Made by a program: the position numbers and the translations under genes. A stretch of DNA of 64,000 bases from positions 7,617 through 71,616 of the forward strand of contig JAFYXH010000012.1 of NCBI GenBank assembly GCA_017546315.1, read 5' to 3'. Shown piece by piece: positions 1 through 43,303 of this stretch (the stretch's first letter is position 1; each line of letters opens with the position of its first letter). The notes below the pieces were generated by a model that saw only the letters and a list, made by a program, of their open reading frames with translations, was not told the DNA's origin and searched no databases. The stretch is from Alphaproteobacteria bacterium. GTDB lineage: Bacteria > Pseudomonadota > Alphaproteobacteria > RF32 > CAG-239.

Positions 1-1320
<1,320 letters not shown>

Positions 1321-2315: not shown

Positions 2316-3305
2316 TTATGGCAATGGAACTGACTTTAGAATGCTTGTAATAATATCATCTGCAGTTATACCTTCTGCTTGAGCTTCGAAGCTTAAAATT
2401 ATTCTATGTCGTAAAACATCATAAATTACTGCGTGAATATCATCTGGTGTTACAAAATCTCTACCTTCTAACCAAGCATTTATTTTTGCACATTTATCAA
2501 GTGCAATGGTTGCTCTTGGGCTTGCTCCAAACAATATATTACCTTTTAGAGAAGAATCGTATTTTTCTGGCTGTCTTGTTGCGATAATCAACTGAACAAG
2601 GTATTCTTCTAGTTGCTCACTAACGTGCATAGATAAAACTTCTCTTCTTGCTTTTAAGATATCCTCTACTGATATTTTTCCTACTGTTTGAGAAAATTCT
2701 TTCCAATTTTCATTTTGCTCTTTTGTGCATAGAGCTTCTTGTCTTACTAGCTTTAGGATTTTACGCTCTGTTTCTGCACTTGGTTGACCAATTTTGATAT
2801 ACATTAAAAATCGGTCTAATTGAGCTTCTGGAAGATTGTATGTACCTTCTTGTTCGATAGGGTTTTGTGTTGCTAATACCATAAAGAGGTTTGGAAGTTT
2901 ATATTGCTTTCCACCAACACTAACTTGACGTTCTGCCATTGCTTCTAAAAGAGCCGATTGAACTTTTGCTGGCGCTCTGTTGATTTCATCTGCTAGAACC
3001 ATATTAGCAAATATTGGCCCTTCTCTAAAATCAAACTCACAACGTTGAGCAATATAAATATCACTTCCTGTTATATCTGATGGAAGCAAATCTGGTGTGA
3101 ACTGAATACGATTAAAACTCGCTTTTACACATTCTGAAAGTGTTTTGATTGCTTTGGTTTTAGCCAATCCTGGAGCTCCTTCTAACAAAGCATGTCCATC
3201 TGCTAAAAGAGTTATTATCAATTTTTTTACTAATTCTTTTTGACCGATAATTTGGCTGTCTAAATATTTTTGTAAAGCAATAACTTTCTCTTTAACTTCG
3301 CTCAT
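2316..3305 (-). CDS. MoxR-family AAA+ ATPase
   Basis: Walker A GAPGLAKT, RIQFTPDLLPSDITG, Walker B/sensor region ADEINRAPAKVQSALLEAMAERQV. Size is typical of MoxR (329 aa). Confidence 0.85.
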   Translation of the reverse strand: MSEVKEKVIALQKYLDSQIIGQKELVKKLIITLLADGHALLEGAPGLAKTKAIKTLSECVKASFNRIQFTPDLLPSDITGSDIYIAQRCEFDFREGPIFANMVLADEINRAPAKVQSALLEAMAERQVSVGGKQYKLPNLFMVLATQNPIEQEGTYNLPEAQLDRFLMYIKIGQPSAETERKILKLVRQEALCTKEQNENWKEFSQTVGKISVEDILKARREVLSMHVSEQLEEYLVQLIIATRQPEKYDSSLKGNILFGASPRATIALDKCAKINAWLEGRDFVTPDDIHAVIYDVLRHRIILSFEAQAEGITADDIITSILKSVPLP

Positions 3306-15952: not shown

Positions 15953-17398
15953 ATGGCAACAAAACCTGAAATTAAAGATGAGAGCGGAGAAAATTACAAA
16001 TTTGGTTTTGTAACTGATATAGAAACCGAGATTATCCCAAAAGGATTAAATGAGGATATTATTAGGCTTATTTCTCAGAAAAAAGAAGAGCCTGAGTGGC
16101 TATTGGAATCTAGGTTGAAAGCATATCGCAAGTGGCTAACTATGGTTGAGCCTACTTGGGCAAAAGTTTCTTATGATAAGATAGATTATCAAGATTTATT
16201 TTATTATTCTGCTCCTAAGCAAAAGATTACCCCTCAGAGTTTGGATGAGGTGGATCCTAAATTGCTTGAAACATATAATAAACTTGGTATTCCATTAAAA
16301 GAGCAAGAAGTTTTGGCTGGGGTTGTTGCTGTTGATGCGGTGTTTGATAGTGTGTCTGTCGCGACAACTTATAAAGCTCAACTAAAAAAGCAAGGAATTA
16401 TATTTTGTTCTATATCTGAGGCGGTGAAAGAATATCCAAGTTTAGTCAAAAAATATTTAGGTTCAGTTGTTCCTTATACTGATAATTTTTTTGCTGCACT
16501 TAATTCTGCGGTGTTTACAGATGGTAGTTTTGTGTATATTCCTAAAGGGGTAAAATGCCCGATGGAATTATCTACTTATTTTCGTATAAATGCAAAGAAT
16601 ACAGGGCAATTTGAAAGAACTCTTATTGTGGCAGATGAGGGGAGTTATGTATCTTATCTTGAGGGGTGCACTGCTCCACAAAGAGATGAAAATCAGCTCC
16701 ATGCGGCTATTGTTGAGATTTTTGTTCATAAAGATGCCGAAGTTAAGTATTCTACTGTTCAAAACTGGTATCCTGGGGACAAGGATGGAAAGGGTGGAGT
16801 TTATAACTTTGTTACCAAACGTGCTTTATGTGATGGTGAAAACTCAAAAGTTTCTTGGACACAAGTTGAAACAGGGTCTGCGGTTACCTGGAAATACCCA
16901 TCTTGTGTGCTTAAAGGGGATGGGGCTAAAGGAGAGTTCTATTCTGTGGCATTGACCAACAACTATCAACAAGCAGATACTGGAACTAAGATGATCCATT
17001 TGGGTAAAAATACTAGTTCTAGAATTATATCTAAGGGTATTTCTGCCGGATTTTCTGACCAAACTTATAGAGGACTTGTTAAAGTTTCTAAAAATGCAAG
17101 TGGGGCTCGCAATTATTCTCAATGTGATAGTTTGTTGATTGGTAGGACTTGTGGTTCTCACACTGTGCCTTATATTGAAAATGCTTCTAAATCTGCAATT
17201 TTGGAGCACGAGGCTACAACATCTAAGATTAGTGATGAGCAATTGTTTTATTGCAAGCAAAGAGGTATGAGCGAAGAAGATGCTGTGGGATTGATTGTTA
17301 ATGGATTTTGCAAAGAAGTTATGCAAAAATTGCCAATGGAATTTGCTATTGAGGCAACTAAATTGATAGAGATTTCGTTAGAGGGAAGTGTTGGATAG
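15953..17398 (+). CDS. sufB: Fe-S cluster assembly scaffold SufB
   Basis: 481 aa with near-canonical SufB sequence ([40 protein letters not shown]). Confidence 0.95.
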
Positions 17399-17404
17399 AT
17401 TGGA

Positions 17405-17701
17405 CTATCTATACCTATAATATTGATTGCTTATGTTTTGAGCAGGGCGACTTTGGTAATTATTTTTTTTGCATACATAAACTAGATTTCTTGCTCCTAC
17501 CCATTCGCTAGATACTTTATCTTTTACATCAAAACCAAATGGACAATCTTCTTTGGCTTTCATATAACAATCACCAAGGCTTAATGCTGAGCCATTACAG
17601 CTTGCTTCGTATACTGTTTGTCCGTTTTCATCCATATATAGAACTCTTGAATATGCGCAAGATGTGACAAATAACAAAATTAAAACTATTGCCTTTTTCA
17701 T
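17405..17701 (-). CDS. small Cys-containing lipoprotein, family unknown (paralog A)
   Basis: Signal peptide with lipobox LFVTSC, four further Cys, C-terminal YYRYR. Strongly similar to the ORF at 18744-19055. Confidence 0.7.
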   Translation of the reverse strand: MKKAIVLILLFVTSCAYSRVLYMDENGQTVYEASCNGSALSLGDCYMKAKEDCPFGFDVKDKVSSEWVGARNLVYVCKKNNYQSRPAQNISNQYYRYR

Positions 17702-17726
17702 TTTATAACCTCTTTGATAAAAACAT

Positions 17727-17991
17727 AAAAAAATCGCCTTAAAGAGGCGATCGGAGAGTTAGAAAATCATGTTAGTAGAAATGACCGTTCAGGCCTTTAA
17801 AACTCGCAAAGGAGTTTCTGGACATACGCAAGAACCTCCCCGACCATTGTCGGGGATATATCTATTGATACCTAAAATTTATAGGTAGCAATATGACGAT
17901 ACTATATCCAGCACCGCGGTAAACAAAAGAGCTTTCTACGACTCCGAACCAACCTCTTGGTTCTAATATGGCAGATCTAGTCCGCCATACT
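17727..17991 (-). ncRNA. unclassified structured leader RNA (candidate riboswitch/attenuator), copy A
   Basis: Bounded by the promoter at 17998-18026 and the terminator ATCGCCT/AGGCGAT plus U7 at 17751-17727. Contains several hairpins conserved or compensated in copy B. Only 25 nt with an AGAGG SD separate it from the lipoprotein ATG. Confidence 0.6.
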
Positions 17992-17997
17992 CACTCT

Positions 17998-18026
17998 AGT
18001 TTAGCAAAATCGTCAACATTAGTCAA
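17998..18026 (-). promoter_or_regulatory. sigma70-like promoter of leader RNA A
   Basis: TTGACT, 17 nt, TAAACT on the minus strand. Copy B has the same -35 and spacing. Confidence 0.5.
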
Positions 18027-18148
18027 GAGTATTATTTTTTGTTAGCATTAACCTAATAATGCTATAAAAATTTATGATGATTTTAATGATTGTGTTAGTA
18101 TTAAATTAAACGATTGTTTATGATGAGATAAAATTTTAATATTTTATA

Positions 18149-18176
18149 TTGACTAATAGACAAAATGATTTATTGT
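18149..18176 (+). promoter_or_regulatory. sigma70-like promoter of divergent ORF A
   Basis: TTGACT, 16 nt, TATTGT. The homologous copy B site is TTGACT, 16 nt, TATAAT. The two share TTGACTnATAGACAAAA. Confidence 0.5.
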
Positions 18177-18202
18177 ATAGGCAAAATAAATTTTTTTATA
18201 TT

Positions 18203-18685
18203 ATGATTATGGGAAAACAAAACACATCTGTTGGGCAAAATTCGCTCGACTTGGTTTCGGCAAAAGTTTCTAAACTTTTCAAGGGTGTTGAACTTTCAGT
18301 TAAGACTGAAGCGGTTGTTCACTATCTTTACAAAAGAAAAAATCTTCACTTTAGTTTGACTGAAGCGGAAGAAGAAGAACTCTTCTCTGTATTGAACAAA
18401 GTTCTTGAGCCGAAAGAGGCTTTTGTAATGCTTAGAGAATATATTGAGCAATATGGAGTTAAGTCTTCGGAAGCAAAGAAAATTTTTGCAAACTTGAAGC
18501 GCTCTTTTGAGGTTTCTCTCAACTTTAAGGAAGCAGAATTGATGGCTAACAGCGAAGAATTACCTGACTGTTTGACAACTTTTACGCCTCCGAGCAACAA
18601 TATGCCAGAAAACGCCATCGTTAGTGATGAAGAACTGCAAAGTATTGTAAAAGAAGTTGAAGCTGAAATTGAAAACAGCAACTAA
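18203..18685 (+). CDS. hypothetical acidic helical protein (paralog A of divergent ORF)
   Basis: ATG at 18203/18209; the track's TTG start at 18149 is the -35 box. The core EAVVHYLYKRKNLHFSLTEAEEEELFSVLNKVLEPKEAFVMLREYIEQYG aligns with 19507-20154. Confidence 0.6.
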   Translation: MIMGKQNTSVGQNSLDLVSAKVSKLFKGVELSVKTEAVVHYLYKRKNLHFSLTEAEEEELFSVLNKVLEPKEAFVMLREYIEQYGVKSSEAKKIFANLKRSFEVSLNFKEAELMANSEELPDCLTTFTPPSNNMPENAIVSDEELQSIVKEVEAEIENSN

Positions 18686-18714
18686 GTTCAGCTAATATTT
18701 TTGGCTTAAAGATT

Positions 18715-18745
18715 AAACGGATACATTAGATGTATCCGTTTTTTT
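18715..18745 (+). terminator. intrinsic terminator (11-bp stem, T7), shared 3' end with lipoprotein B
   Basis: AAACGGATACA-loop-TGTATCCGTTT followed by TTTTT. A homologous terminator follows ORF B. Confidence 0.85.
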
Positions 18746-19055
18746 ATTTATATCTGTAATATTGGGTGGGTTGATATTGGGGACTTGATGTTTGATATTG
18801 GGTGTTGAGTGTCCTGTTGTTTCTGCATGAATATATCAACTTTCTGGAGCCAACCCATTCACTTGCGACCTTATCTTTGACTTCAAAACCATTTGGACAG
18901 TCTTCTCTTGCCTTTTTATAACAATCACCAATACTTAAAACCTCACCATCACAACCTGCTTCATAAACCATTTGACCATATTCATCCATATATAAAGGTC
19001 TTGAATATGAACATGCAGTACATAATAGAACTGCTAATATTGATATTTTTTTCAT
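18744..19055 (-). CDS. small Cys-containing lipoprotein, family unknown (paralog B)
   Basis: Starts MKKISILAVLLCTAC (lipobox) at 19055. The track ORF extends to 19184, but only by reading through the terminator and leader RNA. Confidence 0.7.
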   Translation of the reverse strand: MKKISILAVLLCTACSYSRPLYMDEYGQMVYEAGCDGEVLSIGDCYKKAREDCPNGFEVKDKVASEWVGSRKLIYSCRNNRTLNTQYQTSSPQYQPTQYYRYK

Positions 19056-19079
19056 AACCCTCTCCTTGCATAAAAACAT

Positions 19080-19343
19080 AAAAAAATCGCCTAAAAGAGG
19101 CGATCGGAGAGTTAGAAAAATCACACACATAAGATGACCGTCCAAGCCTTTAAAACTCACAAAGGAGTTTCTGGACATACGCAAGAACCTCCCCGACCAT
19201 TGTCGGGGATATATTTATTGTTATCTAAAAATTACAGATAACAATATGACGATGTTATATCCGCACCGTATGTGTTTAAAAGAGCTTTCTACGACTCCGA
19301 ACCAACCTCTTGGTTCTAACATAGTTAATGTGTTAACTATGCT
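19080..19343 (-). ncRNA. unclassified structured leader RNA, copy B
   Basis: Same promoter, hairpin and terminator order as copy A. Long near-identical blocks, with compensatory substitutions in the variable stems. Confidence 0.6.
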
Positions 19344-19349
19344 TTTTCG

Positions 19350-19378
19350 AAGATAGCAGAATCATCAACATTAGTCAA
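19350..19378 (-). promoter_or_regulatory. sigma70-like promoter of leader RNA B
   Basis: TTGACT, 17 nt, TATCTT on the minus strand. Confidence 0.5.
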
Positions 19379-19441
19379 GAGCATTATTACATATAACAAA
19401 CGAGCAGAAATTTGAGAAAAACAAAAAATTTAACAAGTTTA

Positions 19442-19469
19442 TTGACTTATAGACAAAAAGTAATATAAT
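19442..19469 (+). promoter_or_regulatory. sigma70-like promoter of divergent ORF B
   Basis: TTGACT, 16 nt, TATAAT (consensus hexamers). Confidence 0.6.
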
Positions 19470-19506
19470 CGTGCTACAAAAATATAATTTATAAAATTTT
19501 TTACTT

Positions 19507-20154
19507 ATGAGAAAATTATTATTTATTATTCCTTGGTGGAATGATTGTATTTGTGAAAGGGTTGATTCTTTATTAAAGGAGCAAGACATTAGCCCTAGAA
19601 TTGAAGCTATTATCTTCTATATCTACAAAGAAAAGAGATTGCCTTTTGTGCCATCTAATTTAGAAGAAACGGAAGTTTTTGACGTTTTGGAAAGATGTAT
19701 TGGACCTAAGGAAACTATAAAGGTGTTAAATAATTATTTTCACAAGTGCGGTTTTCCATCTAATCATTCAGCTTTTTTGTTAAACAAGCTTGTTAATTCG
19801 TATAACATTTCTGTGGAAACTTTGGAGACATTTAATGCTCTGAAGGATGCAAAAGATTCTACTGTTGATGAGTGTACTTTGGACTATATTGATAGAAAAG
19901 AGCAAGAACTTGTCTGTAATATTAAGTATTATCTGAAGTGTCAAAAAAACAAGTATGGTAAAAGGGCTCTTTGCGAAATTGAAAAGGACGTTTGGCTTGA
20001 CATTAGATGTCTTTGGGATGTGGTCGATAGTAGCAAAAATGAAGTTGAGTTTTTTAAGATTAAGAAACTTTTTAATGTTCTAAAGAAGGCTGTTAGCAAT
20101 GGTGAAAATAACATTCATCATGTTATCATGGATTTTATCGAACCCAAAAGATGA
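19507..20154 (+). CDS. hypothetical protein (paralog B of divergent ORF)
   Basis: The core EAIIFYIYKEKRLPFVPSNLEETEVFDVLERCIGPKETIKVLNNYFHKCG aligns with ORF A (about one third identical by hand alignment). The C-terminal half is unique. Confidence 0.55.
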   Translation: MRKLLFIIPWWNDCICERVDSLLKEQDISPRIEAIIFYIYKEKRLPFVPSNLEETEVFDVLERCIGPKETIKVLNNYFHKCGFPSNHSAFLLNKLVNSYNISVETLETFNALKDAKDSTVDECTLDYIDRKEQELVCNIKYYLKCQKNKYGKRALCEIEKDVWLDIRCLWDVVDSSKNEVEFFKIKKLFNVLKKAVSNGENNIHHVIMDFIEPKR

Positions 20155-20172
20155 AAATGCTCTAAACACAAA

Positions 20173-20203
20173 AAACGGATACTTAAACAGTATCCGTTTT
20201 TTA
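20173..20203 (+). terminator. intrinsic terminator
   Basis: ACGGATAC-loop-GTATCCGT followed by TTTTTT. Homologous to the terminator at 18715. Confidence 0.85.
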
Positions 20204-20213
20204 TTTGAAATGT

Positions 20214-22667
20214 TTATTTTGTTCCGTCTATTATCTCTACAGCTTTTTCAAAGGTTAGGTCTTTGGTTATTGTGCCTTTAGGAATGCGATAATTATTTTT
20301 ACCACACTTTAGGTATTCACCATAACGACCTGTTGCTAGCAATATATCTGTCTTTAATTTTGGGTGCTGACCAAGAGATTTTGCCTCTGGCTTTTCTGCC
20401 ACGTTTTTCAAAAGCTCTTCCGCTCTTTCTAGTGTGATGTTGAAGATATTATCATTACCAACTAATGAGCGAGATTTATTGCCTTGTTTGATATATTGGC
20501 CAAATTTACCAATGTTTATAGTTATGCCATTGCCGATATCTTTTGGAAGGCTGATTAAAGTATCTGCATGCTCAAAAGTTATCTCTTCTGGTGATAAAAA
20601 CTTAGGAAGAGCAATACGCTTTGGCTTTTCTGTTGTGGCGGTTGCATCTTCGCCTAGTTGGATGTAGAATCCGTATGGACCTTTCTTGAGATATACATTT
20701 AACCCTTGATGTTCACCTAAGATTTTATCTTCTGGGTTTGGTTTCTTCTCTGTTGAGTTTTCTTCCTCGTCCTTAACATCTGTTAGAGGGATGGTGTATT
20801 TGCATTCTGGATAATTTGAACAACCAAGGAATGCACCAAATTTACCAAGTTTGATACTTAGGTGGCCTTTACCACACTCTGGGCACAAACGAGGGTCTGA
20901 ACCGTCTTCTTTTTCTGGGAATAAGTGATATGCTAAAACTTCATCAATTTTATCTATCACTTCACTTACTTGAAGAGGTTGAACCGCTTGAATGTTGTTA
21001 TAGAACTCTTTCCAAAATTCTTCGAGCAGTTTCTTCCACGCTAGAGAGCCTGCGGATATATCATCCAGATTTTCCTCCATTTGGGCGGTAAAGTTATATT
21101 CTACGTATTTCTTGAAATAGTTTTCTAAGAATATGGTTACAATACGACCTCTATCCTCTGGGATGAAACGTAGTTTTTCAACCTTTACATATTTGCGCTC
21201 TTGAATTACAGCAATAATAGAAGCATATGTTGATGGACGACCAATACCTAATTCTTCTAGTTTTTTAACAAGGCTTGCTTCGGTAAAACGAGGAGGTGGA
21301 GTGGTAAAATGCTGCTCTGGCTTAATTGCTTTTTTAGATAAACTTTCACCAACTTCTACATTTGGAAGAAGTCTATTTTCATCATCTTCGTCTGCATCAT
21401 CTTTGCCTTCTTGATAAAGTTTTAAGAAGCCATCAAACGCAATTACTTGTCCATTTGCACGAAGCAAAATTTGTTTGTCTTTTGAGATAGAATCTATCAC
21501 AACTTTATCCATTACGGCCGGTTCCATTTGACAAGCAACGGTACGTTTCCAAATTAGCTCATAAAGTTTGTGAGAATCTGCATCAAGCTTTTCTTCCATT
21601 TTCTTTGGAGTGTTCATTATATCTGCTGGACGAATAGCCTCGTGTGCTTCTTGAGCATTTTTAGATTTTGTTTTGTATTCTTTGGGAGTTTTAGGAAGAT
21701 AATCTTCACCAAAGTATTTTTTGATTGCTTCTCGACAATTTGCAATAGCCTCGGCAGATAGGTTTACGGCGTCAGTTCTCATGTATGTAATGAAACCTGA
21801 TTCATAAAGCTTTTGAGCAACTTGCATTGTTTTTTTGGCTGAAAATCTGAGCTTGCGAGCGGCCTCTTGTTGGAGGGTTGATGTTGTGAAAGGTGGAGCT
21901 GGGTAGCGATTTGCCTTTTTGCGCTCTATCTTTGCTATTTCAAAATCTTGAGCCTCAATCTTTGCTTTTGCAATGTCTGCTTTTTCTTTGGTGTTTATAT
22001 CAAATTTTTCTAATTTTTTGCCATCTAGGTTTATCAAATGAGATGGAATTAACGCATCTGTTTTGGTGTTTAGATCTACGTCTATTGTCCAATATTCTTC
22101 GGGTTTAAATTTCTCTATTTCCATCTCTCTTTCGCAGATTAAACGAAGAGCAACAGATTGAACTCGGCCTGCTGATTTTGAACCTGGAAGTTTGCGCCAC
22201 AAAACAGGAGACAAGGTAAAACCTACGAGATAATCCAATGCACGACGAGCCATATAAGCAGAAACCAAATTGTCATCTATTTGACGAGGGTTCTCGATAG
22301 CATCTGTTACGGCATTTTTGGTGATTTCGTGGAATACTACACGCTCAATCTTTTTATCCTTTAGTTTCTTTTTTGATTTGAGTTCTTCTAATATGTGCCA
22401 AGCAATGGCTTCTCCTTCTCTATCCGGGTCGGATGCGAGGACTAACGTATCACAATTTTTTAGGGCAGTACTGATATCGTTTAGGCGTTTTTTTCCACCT
22501 GAACTTAACTCCCATTCCATTTTAAAACCTTCATCAGGATTAACTGAACCATCTTTGCTGGGCAAGTCTCTTATATGACCATAACTTGCTAAAACTTGAT
22601 AATCCTTACCAAGGTATTTGTTAATTGTTTTGGCTTTTGCCGGAGACTCAACTACAACTAATTTCAT
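20214..22667 (-). CDS. topA: DNA topoisomerase I
   Basis: Toprim start MKLVVVESPAKAKTI, active-site region ITYMRTD, C-terminal zinc-ribbon repeats (CPECGKG...GCSNYPEC). Confidence 0.95.
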   Translation of the reverse strand: MKLVVVESPAKAKTINKYLGKDYQVLASYGHIRDLPSKDGSVNPDEGFKMEWELSSGGKKRLNDISTALKNCDTLVLASDPDREGEAIAWHILEELKSKKKLKDKKIERVVFHEITKNAVTDAIENPRQIDDNLVSAYMARRALDYLVGFTLSPVLWRKLPGSKSAGRVQSVALRLICEREMEIEKFKPEEYWTIDVDLNTKTDALIPSHLINLDGKKLEKFDINTKEKADIAKAKIEAQDFEIAKIERKKANRYPAPPFTTSTLQQEAARKLRFSAKKTMQVAQKLYESGFITYMRTDAVNLSAEAIANCREAIKKYFGEDYLPKTPKEYKTKSKNAQEAHEAIRPADIMNTPKKMEEKLDADSHKLYELIWKRTVACQMEPAVMDKVVIDSISKDKQILLRANGQVIAFDGFLKLYQEGKDDADEDDENRLLPNVEVGESLSKKAIKPEQHFTTPPPRFTEASLVKKLEELGIGRPSTYASIIAVIQERKYVKVEKLRFIPEDRGRIVTIFLENYFKKYVEYNFTAQMEENLDDISAGSLAWKKLLEEFWKEFYNNIQAVQPLQVSEVIDKIDEVLAYHLFPEKEDGSDPRLCPECGKGHLSIKLGKFGAFLGCSNYPECKYTIPLTDVKDEEENSTEKKPNPEDKILGEHQGLNVYLKKGPYGFYIQLGEDATATTEKPKRIALPKFLSPEEITFEHADTLISLPKDIGNGITINIGKFGQYIKQGNKSRSLVGNDNIFNITLERAEELLKNVAEKPEAKSLGQHPKLKTDILLATGRYGEYLKCGKNNYRIPKGTITKDLTFEKAVEIIDGTK

Positions 22668-43215: not shown

Positions 43216-43303
43216 GGAGCGTTGGCAGAGTGGTAATGCAGCGGATTGCTAATCCGTCATCCTGAATAGGGATGCATAGGTTCGAGTCCTATACGCTCCG
43301 CCA
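43216..43303 (+). tRNA. tRNA-Ser (anticodon GCU), CCA encoded
   Basis: Hand-folded cloverleaf. Acceptor GGAGCGT/ACGCTCC, anticodon loop TTGCTAA, long variable arm CATCC-loop-GGATG, T arm ATAGG-TTCGAGT-CCTAT, discriminator G plus CCA. Confidence 0.9.

Follow-up and report, generated by a model that had tools for sequence, protein, structure and literature searches.

The duplicated block between sufB and topA in a 64,000-nucleotide stretch of an alphaproteobacterial genome (contig JAFYXH010000012.1, positions 7,617 to 71,616 of the forward strand; hereafter the window, with a GC content of 33%) contains a structured RNA, and this RNA, not the duplicated genes, is the core feature of the locus. 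Covariation strongly supports a conserved structured core for the RNA. Its family occurs widely in uncultured Alphaproteobacteria of the gut and rumen, and it is probably a distant homologue of the Brt RNAs of Bartonella. On balance, we favour reading the block as two paralogous expression units, each with a Brt-like attenuator RNA and a paralogous lipoprotein gene downstream of it (hereafter the cargo), inside a variable island between topA and sufB.

A structured RNA in both units of the duplicated block

The two tandem units (17405-18745 and 18744-20203) lie at an offset of ~1353 nt according to the repeat finder. Each comprises a minus-strand gene for a small Cys-rich lipoprotein, a minus-strand RNA upstream of it, back-to-back promoters, a divergent plus-strand open reading frame (ORF), and a terminator, all in identical order and orientation (Table 1). 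An earlier note on this DNA had described these five components, and they are present where it put them, including the promoters and the AAACGGATAC..GTATCCGTTTTTT terminators located by promoter and terminator scans. The ORF list bears out the position between two core genes, with no mobile-element ORFs near the block in the window, and both lipoproteins have the lipobox Cys and four conserved Cys that had been noticed. The leader RNA of that description does exist on the minus strand but had not been recognised as the conserved structured element of the locus; the intrinsic terminator that ends each RNA, absent from the description, was found in both units by the terminator scan.

Conservation between the units is very uneven, being far higher in the RNA than in the lipoprotein and far higher in the lipoprotein than in the divergent ORF. 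Four non-coding spacer blocks (repeat finder families D2-D4 and D6) are 91-98% identical, the unit-end terminators (18715-18741 and 20170-20202) 75%, and the two lipoprotein genes 70% as DNA and 58% as protein (E-value (E) 6e-45). The spacer that holds the RNA measures ~500 nt between lipoprotein 1 and divergent ORF 1 and ~450 nt between lipoprotein 2 and divergent ORF 2. Read on the minus strand, each spacer presents a promoter, ~265 nt, a terminator, ~23 nt, the ribosome-binding site AAGAGG or GGAGAG, and the ATG of the lipoprotein. Because the gap of ~23 nt from U-tract to ATG is too short, the lipoprotein cannot have a separate promoter. The hairpins of the RNA terminators, of the form GATCGCC..GGCGATTTTTTT, lie at 17732-17752 and 19085-19105, just 5' of the lipoprotein ribosome-binding sites, and the -35 box CTTGACTAAT of the RNA promoter is kept in most members of the RNA family. 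The GC content of the RNA is 0.38-0.42 (copy 1: 0.42), as opposed to 0.19-0.22 in the remaining spacer (copy 1: 0.19) and 0.33 in the window.

Single-sequence folds of both RNA copies are far more stable than those of shuffled sequences, and the substitutions that distinguish copy 2 from copy 1 in the 5' and central hairpins are compensatory. From 5' to 3', the element consists of a variable 5' hairpin, a small hairpin, a long closing stem (P1), four internal hairpins, and the terminator. P1 of the window-type RNA is composed of GGAG/CUCC, UAGAAAA/UUUUCUA, and a freely covarying 8-bp helix. The internal hairpins include the invariant UCCCCGA..UCGGGGA, which is followed by GGUUCU.GCGUAUGU.CAGAA, and the invariant junction nucleotides of the family consensus include UCCCCGA/UCGGGGAGG and UAUGU.CAG.

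A covariance model (R1) was built from 16 sequences, and a search with it yielded 36 aligned members. In this alignment 98% of cells are paired, a fraction inflated by the alignment having been fitted to R1; changes on both sides occur in 43 of the 72 pairs, a count that none of 500 shuffles reached, and sliding the partners by 1-3 columns leaves only 38-46% of cells paired. The terminator of the RNA (helix 12 of the family model) has compensatory changes in seven of its eight pairs. An independent MAFFT alignment of the 16 seed sequences, analysed with RNAalifold, gave 16 compensatory pairs, and divergent family members reach the same architecture in stand-alone folds.

Exact patterns taken from the invariant blocks identified 12 true loci in species-representative genomes, all of them metagenome-assembled genomes of gut or rumen Alphaproteobacteria, and 44 metagenome loci, which include divergent variants of higher GC content. 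The same patterns had no match in viral contigs, and blastn with the window RNA had none in plasmids. Some genomes carry several copies (two in the window, three in RGIG8741, and two in RGIG8928), each before a different envelope gene.

Weak variants of the RNA, here called b-type, score 28-41 bits to R1 and occur at L028 9870-10115(-), L068 4652-4899(+), L069 2453-2700(+), and L076-L078 2252-2495(+) (loci are cited by L numbers). They keep the small hairpin, P1 (GGG.GU.GA.ACC / GGUU.UC.AAC.UCC), the 8-bp helix, and the terminator; the interior is different and has no CCCCGA hairpin. Each precedes a small ORF: in L068 it has 51 aa, in L028 it starts like a signal peptide, and in L076 it encodes a distant homologue of the Cys-rich lipoprotein.

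Searches for known RNA families were negative. Rfam 15, searched at the gathering score and at relaxed cut-offs, gave only noise for the duplicated block in the window, the isolated window RNA and the L065 variant (both at E up to 10), and the Bartonella Brt (E up to 1), and ARAGORN found no tRNA or transfer-messenger RNA (tmRNA) in the region of the block. The sole Rfam or ARAGORN match in the window is a tRNA-Ser(GCU) at 43216-43303(+). A housekeeping RNA (tmRNA, RNase P, signal recognition particle RNA, or 6S) was rejected on these searches, on a core that is multi-branched and not a 6S-like rod, on the several copies per genome, and on the loss of the RNA at the L070 locus.

Several coding or motif readings of the RNA were also discarded. 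A small ORF, ATGGTCGGGGAG.. (MVGEVLAYVQKL), initially looked synonymous-biased; its frame shifts in the L065 group (ATGGATCGG), and L056 and L029 lack its ATG. Another, from GUAUGU after GGAGG, varies in length and frame between members. Readings by eye as ANTAR dual-hexaloop, CsrA GGA-loop, or ops-like GCGGT elements failed on loops that are inconsistent among members. A 146-aa TTG-started ORF at 18744-19184(-), which starts within RNA copy 2 and continues across the terminator into the reading frame of lipoprotein 2, is an artefact: copy 1 has stops in the corresponding frame, and relatives do not conserve it.

Table 1. Positions of features in and around the duplicated block (window coordinates unless a locus is named).
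Feature	Position	Strand	Details and basis
sufB	15953-17398	+	Flank of block; ORF list
Cargo gene 1, Cys-rich lipoprotein	17405-17701	-	98 aa; lipobox LFVTSC, 4 further Cys, YYRYR tail; ORF list; 100% identical to P0001
Ribosome-binding site of lipoprotein 1	17709-17714	-	AAGAGG, 7 nt 5' of ATG; read from sequence
Intrinsic terminator of RNA copy 1	17725-17752	-	GAUCGCCU-CUUUA-AGGCGAUU then U7; terminator scan; helix 12 of family model
Brt-like structured RNA, copy 1	17725-17991	-	~267 nt; R1 271.7 bits; single-sequence fold z = -4.6
Promoter of RNA copy 1	18026-17998	-	TTGACT-17-TAAACT, TG ahead of -10; promoter scan
Promoter-like site of divergent ORF 1	18149-18176	+	TTGACT-16-TATTGT; consensus match only
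Divergent ORFan 1	18203-18685	+	160 aa; isoelectric point (pI) 4.9; ORF list
Bidirectional terminator hairpin	18715-18741		AAACGGATAC-ATTAGAT-GTATCCGTTT; between divergent ORF 1 (+) and lipoprotein 2 (-); repeats D5, I1 and terminator scan
Cargo gene 2, paralogous Cys-rich lipoprotein	18744-19055	-	103 aa; ORF list; 58% identical to copy 1
Intrinsic terminator of RNA copy 2	19078-19105	-	Terminator scan; family model
Brt-like structured RNA, copy 2	19078-19343	-	~266 nt; R1 261 bits; fold z = -6.3
Promoter of RNA copy 2	19378-19350	-	TTGACT-17-TATCTT; promoter scan
Promoter-like site of divergent ORF 2	19442-19469	+	TTGACT-16-TATAAT, 11/12 matches; promoter scan
Divergent ORFan 2	19507-20154	+	215 aa; pI 6.5; 9 Cys; ORF list
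Terminator hairpin	20170-20202		AAAAAACGGATACT-TAAAC-AGTATCCGTTTTTT; between divergent ORF 2 (+) and topA (-); repeat I8 and terminator scan
topA	20214-22667	-	Flank of block; ORF list
Back-to-back promoter-like hexamers	each unit	- and +	One on - (RNA), one on + (divergent ORF); promoter scan
Unit-end terminators	18715-18741 and 20170-20202		AAACGGATAC..GTATCCGTTTTTT form; repeat and terminator scans
203-aa ORFan family	L006 80-691; L028 10177-10767, 10937-11614	-	
203-aa ORFan family	L068 4001-4606; L070 4001-4621	+	

Downstream and divergent genes around the RNA

Most RNA copies are located between topA and sufB; in ten lineages, the RNA begins 70-135 nt past the topA stop codon and its cargo extends as far as the 3' end of sufB. 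L066 aside, all members whose 3' flank is complete have a ribosome-binding site and an ORF on the same strand within ~20-35 nt after the RNA. The cargos include the Cys-rich lipoprotein, a TRL lipoprotein (PF13146), a PEGA lipoprotein, and other lipoproteins, as well as pilin-like proteins (N-terminus G|RSMIEMLGVLA), a SHOCT-tailed membrane protein, a 576-aa Acyl_transf_3 membrane acyltransferase, and an XRE-type regulator (L079). Extra RNA copies elsewhere in the same genomes precede pilin-like genes. Since the cargo changes while the RNA stays, the constant unit is the promoter, the RNA, the expression platform, and any one envelope gene.

The lipoprotein of the window has close relatives in only three clusters among 5.8 billion proteins, and a wider, uncurated superfamily of small four-Cys lipoproteins has 145 representatives. 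The earlier note had proposed structural and profile checks of this protein. AlphaFold2 gave a predicted beta-beta-alpha-beta-beta fold with a moderate predicted local distance difference test score (72), a Foldseek search of this model against PDB returned nothing with E below 0.08, and profile searches found no match in Pfam, NCBIfam, or PDB sequences. An 84%-identical orthologue lies between topA and sufB at L001-L003, with a single RNA copy and no divergent ORF. At L006, the RNA is followed first by a TRL lipoprotein gene and then by the gene of a 61%-identical relative. Three remote members of the superfamily were checked: two have no room upstream for the RNA, and the third (L076) is located behind the weak b-type RNA. 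The orthologue P0002 (L001 4207-4503) and the product of 17405-17701 are identical over the C-terminal ~55 residues and diverged in the N-terminal half, a mosaic that suggests recombination within the cargo gene.

Three loci have unusual cargo positions. In L044, the position is taken by a 336-aa ORF (+13..1024 after the RNA) that by eye is DNA methyltransferase-like. In L066, three consecutive ORFs, serine recombinase-like by eye, start at +474 after the RNA and the terminator normally present is broken up, which would fit an insertion of mobile DNA at the cargo site. In L047, downstream of the RNA at 3001-3297, a pilin-like cargo is split by a frameshift into ORFs of 108 and 179 aa relative to near-identical relatives, which could reflect a pseudogene, phase variation, or an assembly error.

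A cargo that is hypervariable between the RNA and sufB, within constant flanks, is also what would be expected if the RNA-coding DNA, together with topA and sufB, served as a homology anchor for the recombination of surface cassettes, with conservation arising from gene conversion and not from RNA function. The mosaic P0002, the mobile-looking DNA at the cargo position of L044 and L066, and the presence of genes for DprA and pilin-like proteins in these genomes are in line with such a role. We nevertheless regard it as very unlikely: helix-preserving compensatory substitutions indicate selection on RNA structure and not on DNA identity, and RNA copies are found at unrelated loci and on Bartonella plasmids.

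The divergent ORFs, judged by sequence comparison, are lineage-specific passengers outside the conserved RNA-cargo unit. They have no Pfam family, and their similarity to each other (32% identity) is limited to the N-terminal 91 residues. The acidic character ascribed to the plus-strand ORF by the earlier note holds for the first copy (pI 4.9) and not for the second (pI 6.5). The family amounts to three protein clusters in 5.8 billion sequences, namely the two window copies and one 69%-identical relative at L067, and tblastn detected no divergent ORF at any other RNA locus. In another lineage, a 203-aa ORFan that is unrelated to those of the window (11 clusters, no Pfam) occupies the divergent position.

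These distributions bear on the proposal, made in the earlier note, that the lipoprotein, the RNA, and the divergent ORF function together as a three-gene module, all of which was duplicated. The five parts shared by both window units speak for it, as do the placement of all three known members of the divergent-ORF family divergent to an RNA copy and the second, unrelated ORFan at the same position in another lineage. Comparative data have already largely refuted it, and we consider it highly improbable. The three components do not co-occur across relatives: the closest ones (L001, L016, and L022), compared for copy number and presence of the module, have a single RNA and lipoprotein directly between topA and sufB and lack the divergent ORF, which is thus missing even beside the closest lipoprotein orthologue. 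At L067, the divergent-ORF homologue and an RNA are paired with a different cargo, and at L070 the 203-aa ORFan outlives the RNA, still lying between sufB and topA where RNA and cargo are gone. The note had itself named independence of the parts in relatives as counter-evidence, and independence is what we found for the divergent ORF. Moreover, the divergent ORFs of the window retain 32% identity over 91 aa versus 91-98% for the RNA copies, and the lipoprotein is one of many interchangeable cargos. The proposal holds in part: the RNA and the gene directly downstream recur as a unit, and the module of three genes does not.

The Brt RNAs of Bartonella as candidate relatives

The nine Brt RNAs of B. 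henselae (Brt1-9), each paired with one of trp1-9, are 193-205 nt long, highly transcribed, and described as genus-specific (PMC5387305). The trp genes encode XRE regulators, begin ~15 nt past the Brt, are barely transcribed, and lack a promoter of their own (PMC5387305; Tu et al., MicrobiologyOpen 2016/17). Deletion of the Brt1 3' stem-loop de-repressed trp1, and a gfp reporter placed behind brt1 responded to falling heme with increased expression (review PMC8070961).

A bridge between these RNAs and the window family is provided by L079, the one match of the window RNA in a blastn search of phage records, where it is labelled an 'UNVERIFIED Bacteriophage sp.' contig. This sequence (GenBank MT835859.1, 12527-20641) carries MltA-like, Tim44-like, SecB-like, and hydrogenase-like genes, which are of bacterial housekeeping type and look alphaproteobacterial, and it is probably an alphaproteobacterial chromosomal fragment. 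Its RNA scores 109 bits to R1 and precedes the gene for an XRE-type helix-turn-helix (HTH) protein that shares 40% identity (E 3e-21) with a Trp-like regulator of Bartonella. With a clear family RNA and a Trp homologue side by side, both RNA and cargo are common across the bridge.

A literature search found no printed Brt sequences; the published Brt primers resemble the family core (Brt TTCCGGGAGATTTTGCTATGTCCA versus window TCGGGGAGGTTCTTGCGTATGTCCAG). Via the published probe sequence, we located Brt copies on five Bartonella plasmids (L080-L084); in each case, a gene annotated as an HTH regulator follows on the same strand after 16-19 nt. The printed 'BrtProbe' oligonucleotide (Table S6, PMC5387305) has the same sense as the HTH-coding strand at these loci, which is the sense of the RNA and not its complement. 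Run with filters off, R1 matches L081, L080, and L082 at the correct site and strand with 24.6, 21.9, and 16.1 bits (E 1e-8 to 2e-5, where covariance-model E-values are rough and noise reached ~16 bits in another, larger search of 640 kb); the next-best match has at most 10.4 bits. In the three matching rows, 37-44 of 40-45 model pairs form. An RNAalifold consensus from Brt sequences alone contains a small hairpin, a covarying long-range 8-bp helix (helix 4), a CCCGG/CCGGG hairpin, and a GUGCU/AGCAC hairpin, and Brt sequences truncated after CUCCC adopt the P1-closed architecture in five of five folds. The invariant residues picked out for Brt1 are the UCCCGG/CCGGGAG hairpin, UAUGUCCAG, and P1.

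Besides the rough E-values, two sequence-profile results weigh against the link: nhmmer with the family hidden Markov model (HMM) reaches only 8.2 bits on Bartonella (E 0.004; decoys at most 3.5 bits), and the reciprocal nhmmer search with a Brt HMM finds no family member. We nonetheless hold homology to be likely on the strength of the structural matches and the L079 bridge. Both groups are multi-copy structured RNAs of ~200-265 nt that have their own promoter and lie ~15-35 nt upstream of a promoterless gene, and both end in a 3' stem-loop, for which an attenuator role is reported in Brt. Both have a small hairpin and a long closing stem, then the covarying 8-bp helix and a hairpin of the CCCCGA/UCGGGG type with G.UU.U.G..UAUGU.CAG behind it, and finally a further hairpin and UAAA.GC. 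The closing stem is built of GGAG/CUCC and UAGAAAA/UUUUCUA in the window and of GGGA/UCCC and UUAAAAG/CUUUUAA in Brt. The window RNA is longer by two hairpins, one 5' of the small hairpin and one inside P1 (four versus three). The groups also differ in platform, which is a canonical intrinsic terminator in the window and a hairpin that sequesters the Shine-Dalgarno sequence and start codon in Brt; in cargo, a lipoprotein in the window and other envelope proteins in its relatives versus an XRE regulator in Brt, a type found in the family only at L079; and in host, an uncultured low-GC gut or rumen alphaproteobacterium versus Bartonella. The window family thus probably extends the 'Bartonella-specific' Brt RNAs across the Alphaproteobacteria, with new cargos and a new platform.

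Proposed mode of action and alternatives

By its likely homology with Brt, the RNA may well be a cis-acting, riboswitch-like attenuator, which is the role we think most probable. A sigma-70-type promoter would drive a structured RNA of ~265 nt that ends at an intrinsic terminator ahead of the promoterless lipoprotein gene. Most window transcripts would stop at 17725 or 19078 and accumulate as a stable ~265-nt RNA, and the lipoprotein would be made only upon conditional read-through of the terminator. In members without a U-tract, release of the Shine-Dalgarno sequence from the 3' strand of P1 would allow expression of the cargo. The likely sensor, of a metabolite or protein, would be the folded core inside P1.

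Two types of platform occur. Most members have the intrinsic terminator; the L065/L050/L044 group has a hairpin without a U-tract, and UCUCCG of the P1 3' strand pairs with the Shine-Dalgarno sequence CGGAGA. The Bartonella RNAalifold consensus also lacks a U-tract, with CUCCC pairing with the Shine-Dalgarno sequence GGGGG and GUACUUU with the start-codon region AAAGUGC. In both groups, these pairings of the P1 3' strand would compete with P1. When the platform is included in the Bartonella folds, P1 is lost in three of five and kept in two, and in two of the three that lose it (L081 and L082) the P1 3' strand pairs with the Shine-Dalgarno/start-codon region. One core with two platform types is typical of riboswitch-like regulators. 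Other features that the family shares with riboswitches and attenuating leaders are a multi-helix core closed by a P1 whose 3' strand abuts or overlaps the platform, the use of either a terminator or a Shine-Dalgarno-sequestering platform with the same core, and several copies per genome before different genes. Unlike them, the window family has no clear terminator/antiterminator switch, no cargo from a metabolic or transport pathway, no Rfam family, and no known ligand.

Against attenuation, the terminator-type platform of the window has no convincing antiterminator, and the candidate would be much weaker than the two hairpins that it would have to displace. The cargo genes share the cell envelope and no pathway, so they offer no clue to a ligand. 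In the antiterminator candidate, which co-transcriptional folds suggested, the 5' arm of the terminator is bound by the 3' arm of the small hairpin. Of its cells, 89% are paired, and we rejected it on covariation that comes from L029 alone and does not exceed shuffles. The attenuation by the Brt 3' stem-loop and the heme-dependent reporter response are reported for Bartonella only (PMC8070961).

If there were no sensing at all, the RNA might be a passive 5' leader that stabilises the mRNA or boosts abundant surface proteins, like the ompA 5' untranslated region (UTR) or STAB-SD. The 5'-terminal hairpins right after the predicted start site, the Shine-Dalgarno-like GGAG and GGGGAGG motifs in the RNA, and the frequent high expression of cargos such as pilin-like proteins and lipoproteins would suit this function. 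A strong intrinsic terminator before the gene opposes a pure enhancer role, a junction of ~200 nt with invariant residues far exceeds what stabilisation needs, and the downstream genes of Bartonella are poorly transcribed (PMC5387305). We therefore judge a passive leader improbable.

A distinctly better, though still doubtful, alternative to cis attenuation is that the RNA acts chiefly in trans, as an abundant small RNA in its own right, with the downstream genes using leaky read-through; the two functions are compatible. With its own promoter, a strong terminator, and a U7-8 tail, the RNA forms a complete transcription unit, its unpaired stretches are very highly conserved in sequence, and its position after topA is constant whatever the cargo. 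In Bartonella, badA expression went up when Brt1 was knocked down by antisense, an increase that the authors attributed to action in trans (PMC5387305), and a dual role in cis and trans has been proposed for Brt1. Conversely, each extra copy is tied to its own downstream ORF, the members without a U-tract (the L065 group and Bartonella) have an RNA that is physically the 5' UTR of the cargo, the loss of the RNA at the L070 locus shows that it is not housekeeping there, and no target is predictable. A terminated leader that doubles as a small RNA has a parallel, cited in PMC5387305, in Listeria SreA/SreB, RNAs derived from S-adenosylmethionine riboswitches that act in trans; their ligand, unlike that of the window RNA, is known.

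The cis-attenuator reading that we prefer can also be set beside leaders of variable surface loci. JUMPStart/ops leaders lie before variable surface-polysaccharide and pilus operons and depend on RfaH; ops, a short DNA/RNA element, serves long operons by bringing in a NusG paralogue. The window RNA is alike in being an untranslated leader kept before highly variable surface cargo that is flanked by housekeeping genes, and it differs in being a folded RNA of 265 nt with a terminator and single small genes.

More tentatively, the Brt-like RNAs might form a widespread alphaproteobacterial riboswitch class with main, reduced Bartonella, and b-type cores, sensing a small molecule derived from the host or gut and gating surface proteins, pilins, and XRE regulators; the window copies would then be two switches for paralogous lipoproteins. 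The only published lead to a ligand is heme, from the Brt1 reporter (PMC8070961).

In the uncultured Alphaproteobacteria of gut and rumen, the hypervariable locus of surface proteins between topA and sufB would have a dedicated control point in this RNA. For Bartonella, the Brt RNAs are among the most abundant B. henselae transcripts and control an adhesin and biofilm circuit, and their earlier structure came from single-sequence folds only. If the link holds, the Brt family is much older and broader, with dozens of divergent members, a covariation-supported consensus structure, and two kinds of platform, and the question of what Brt senses becomes directly testable on a defined core.

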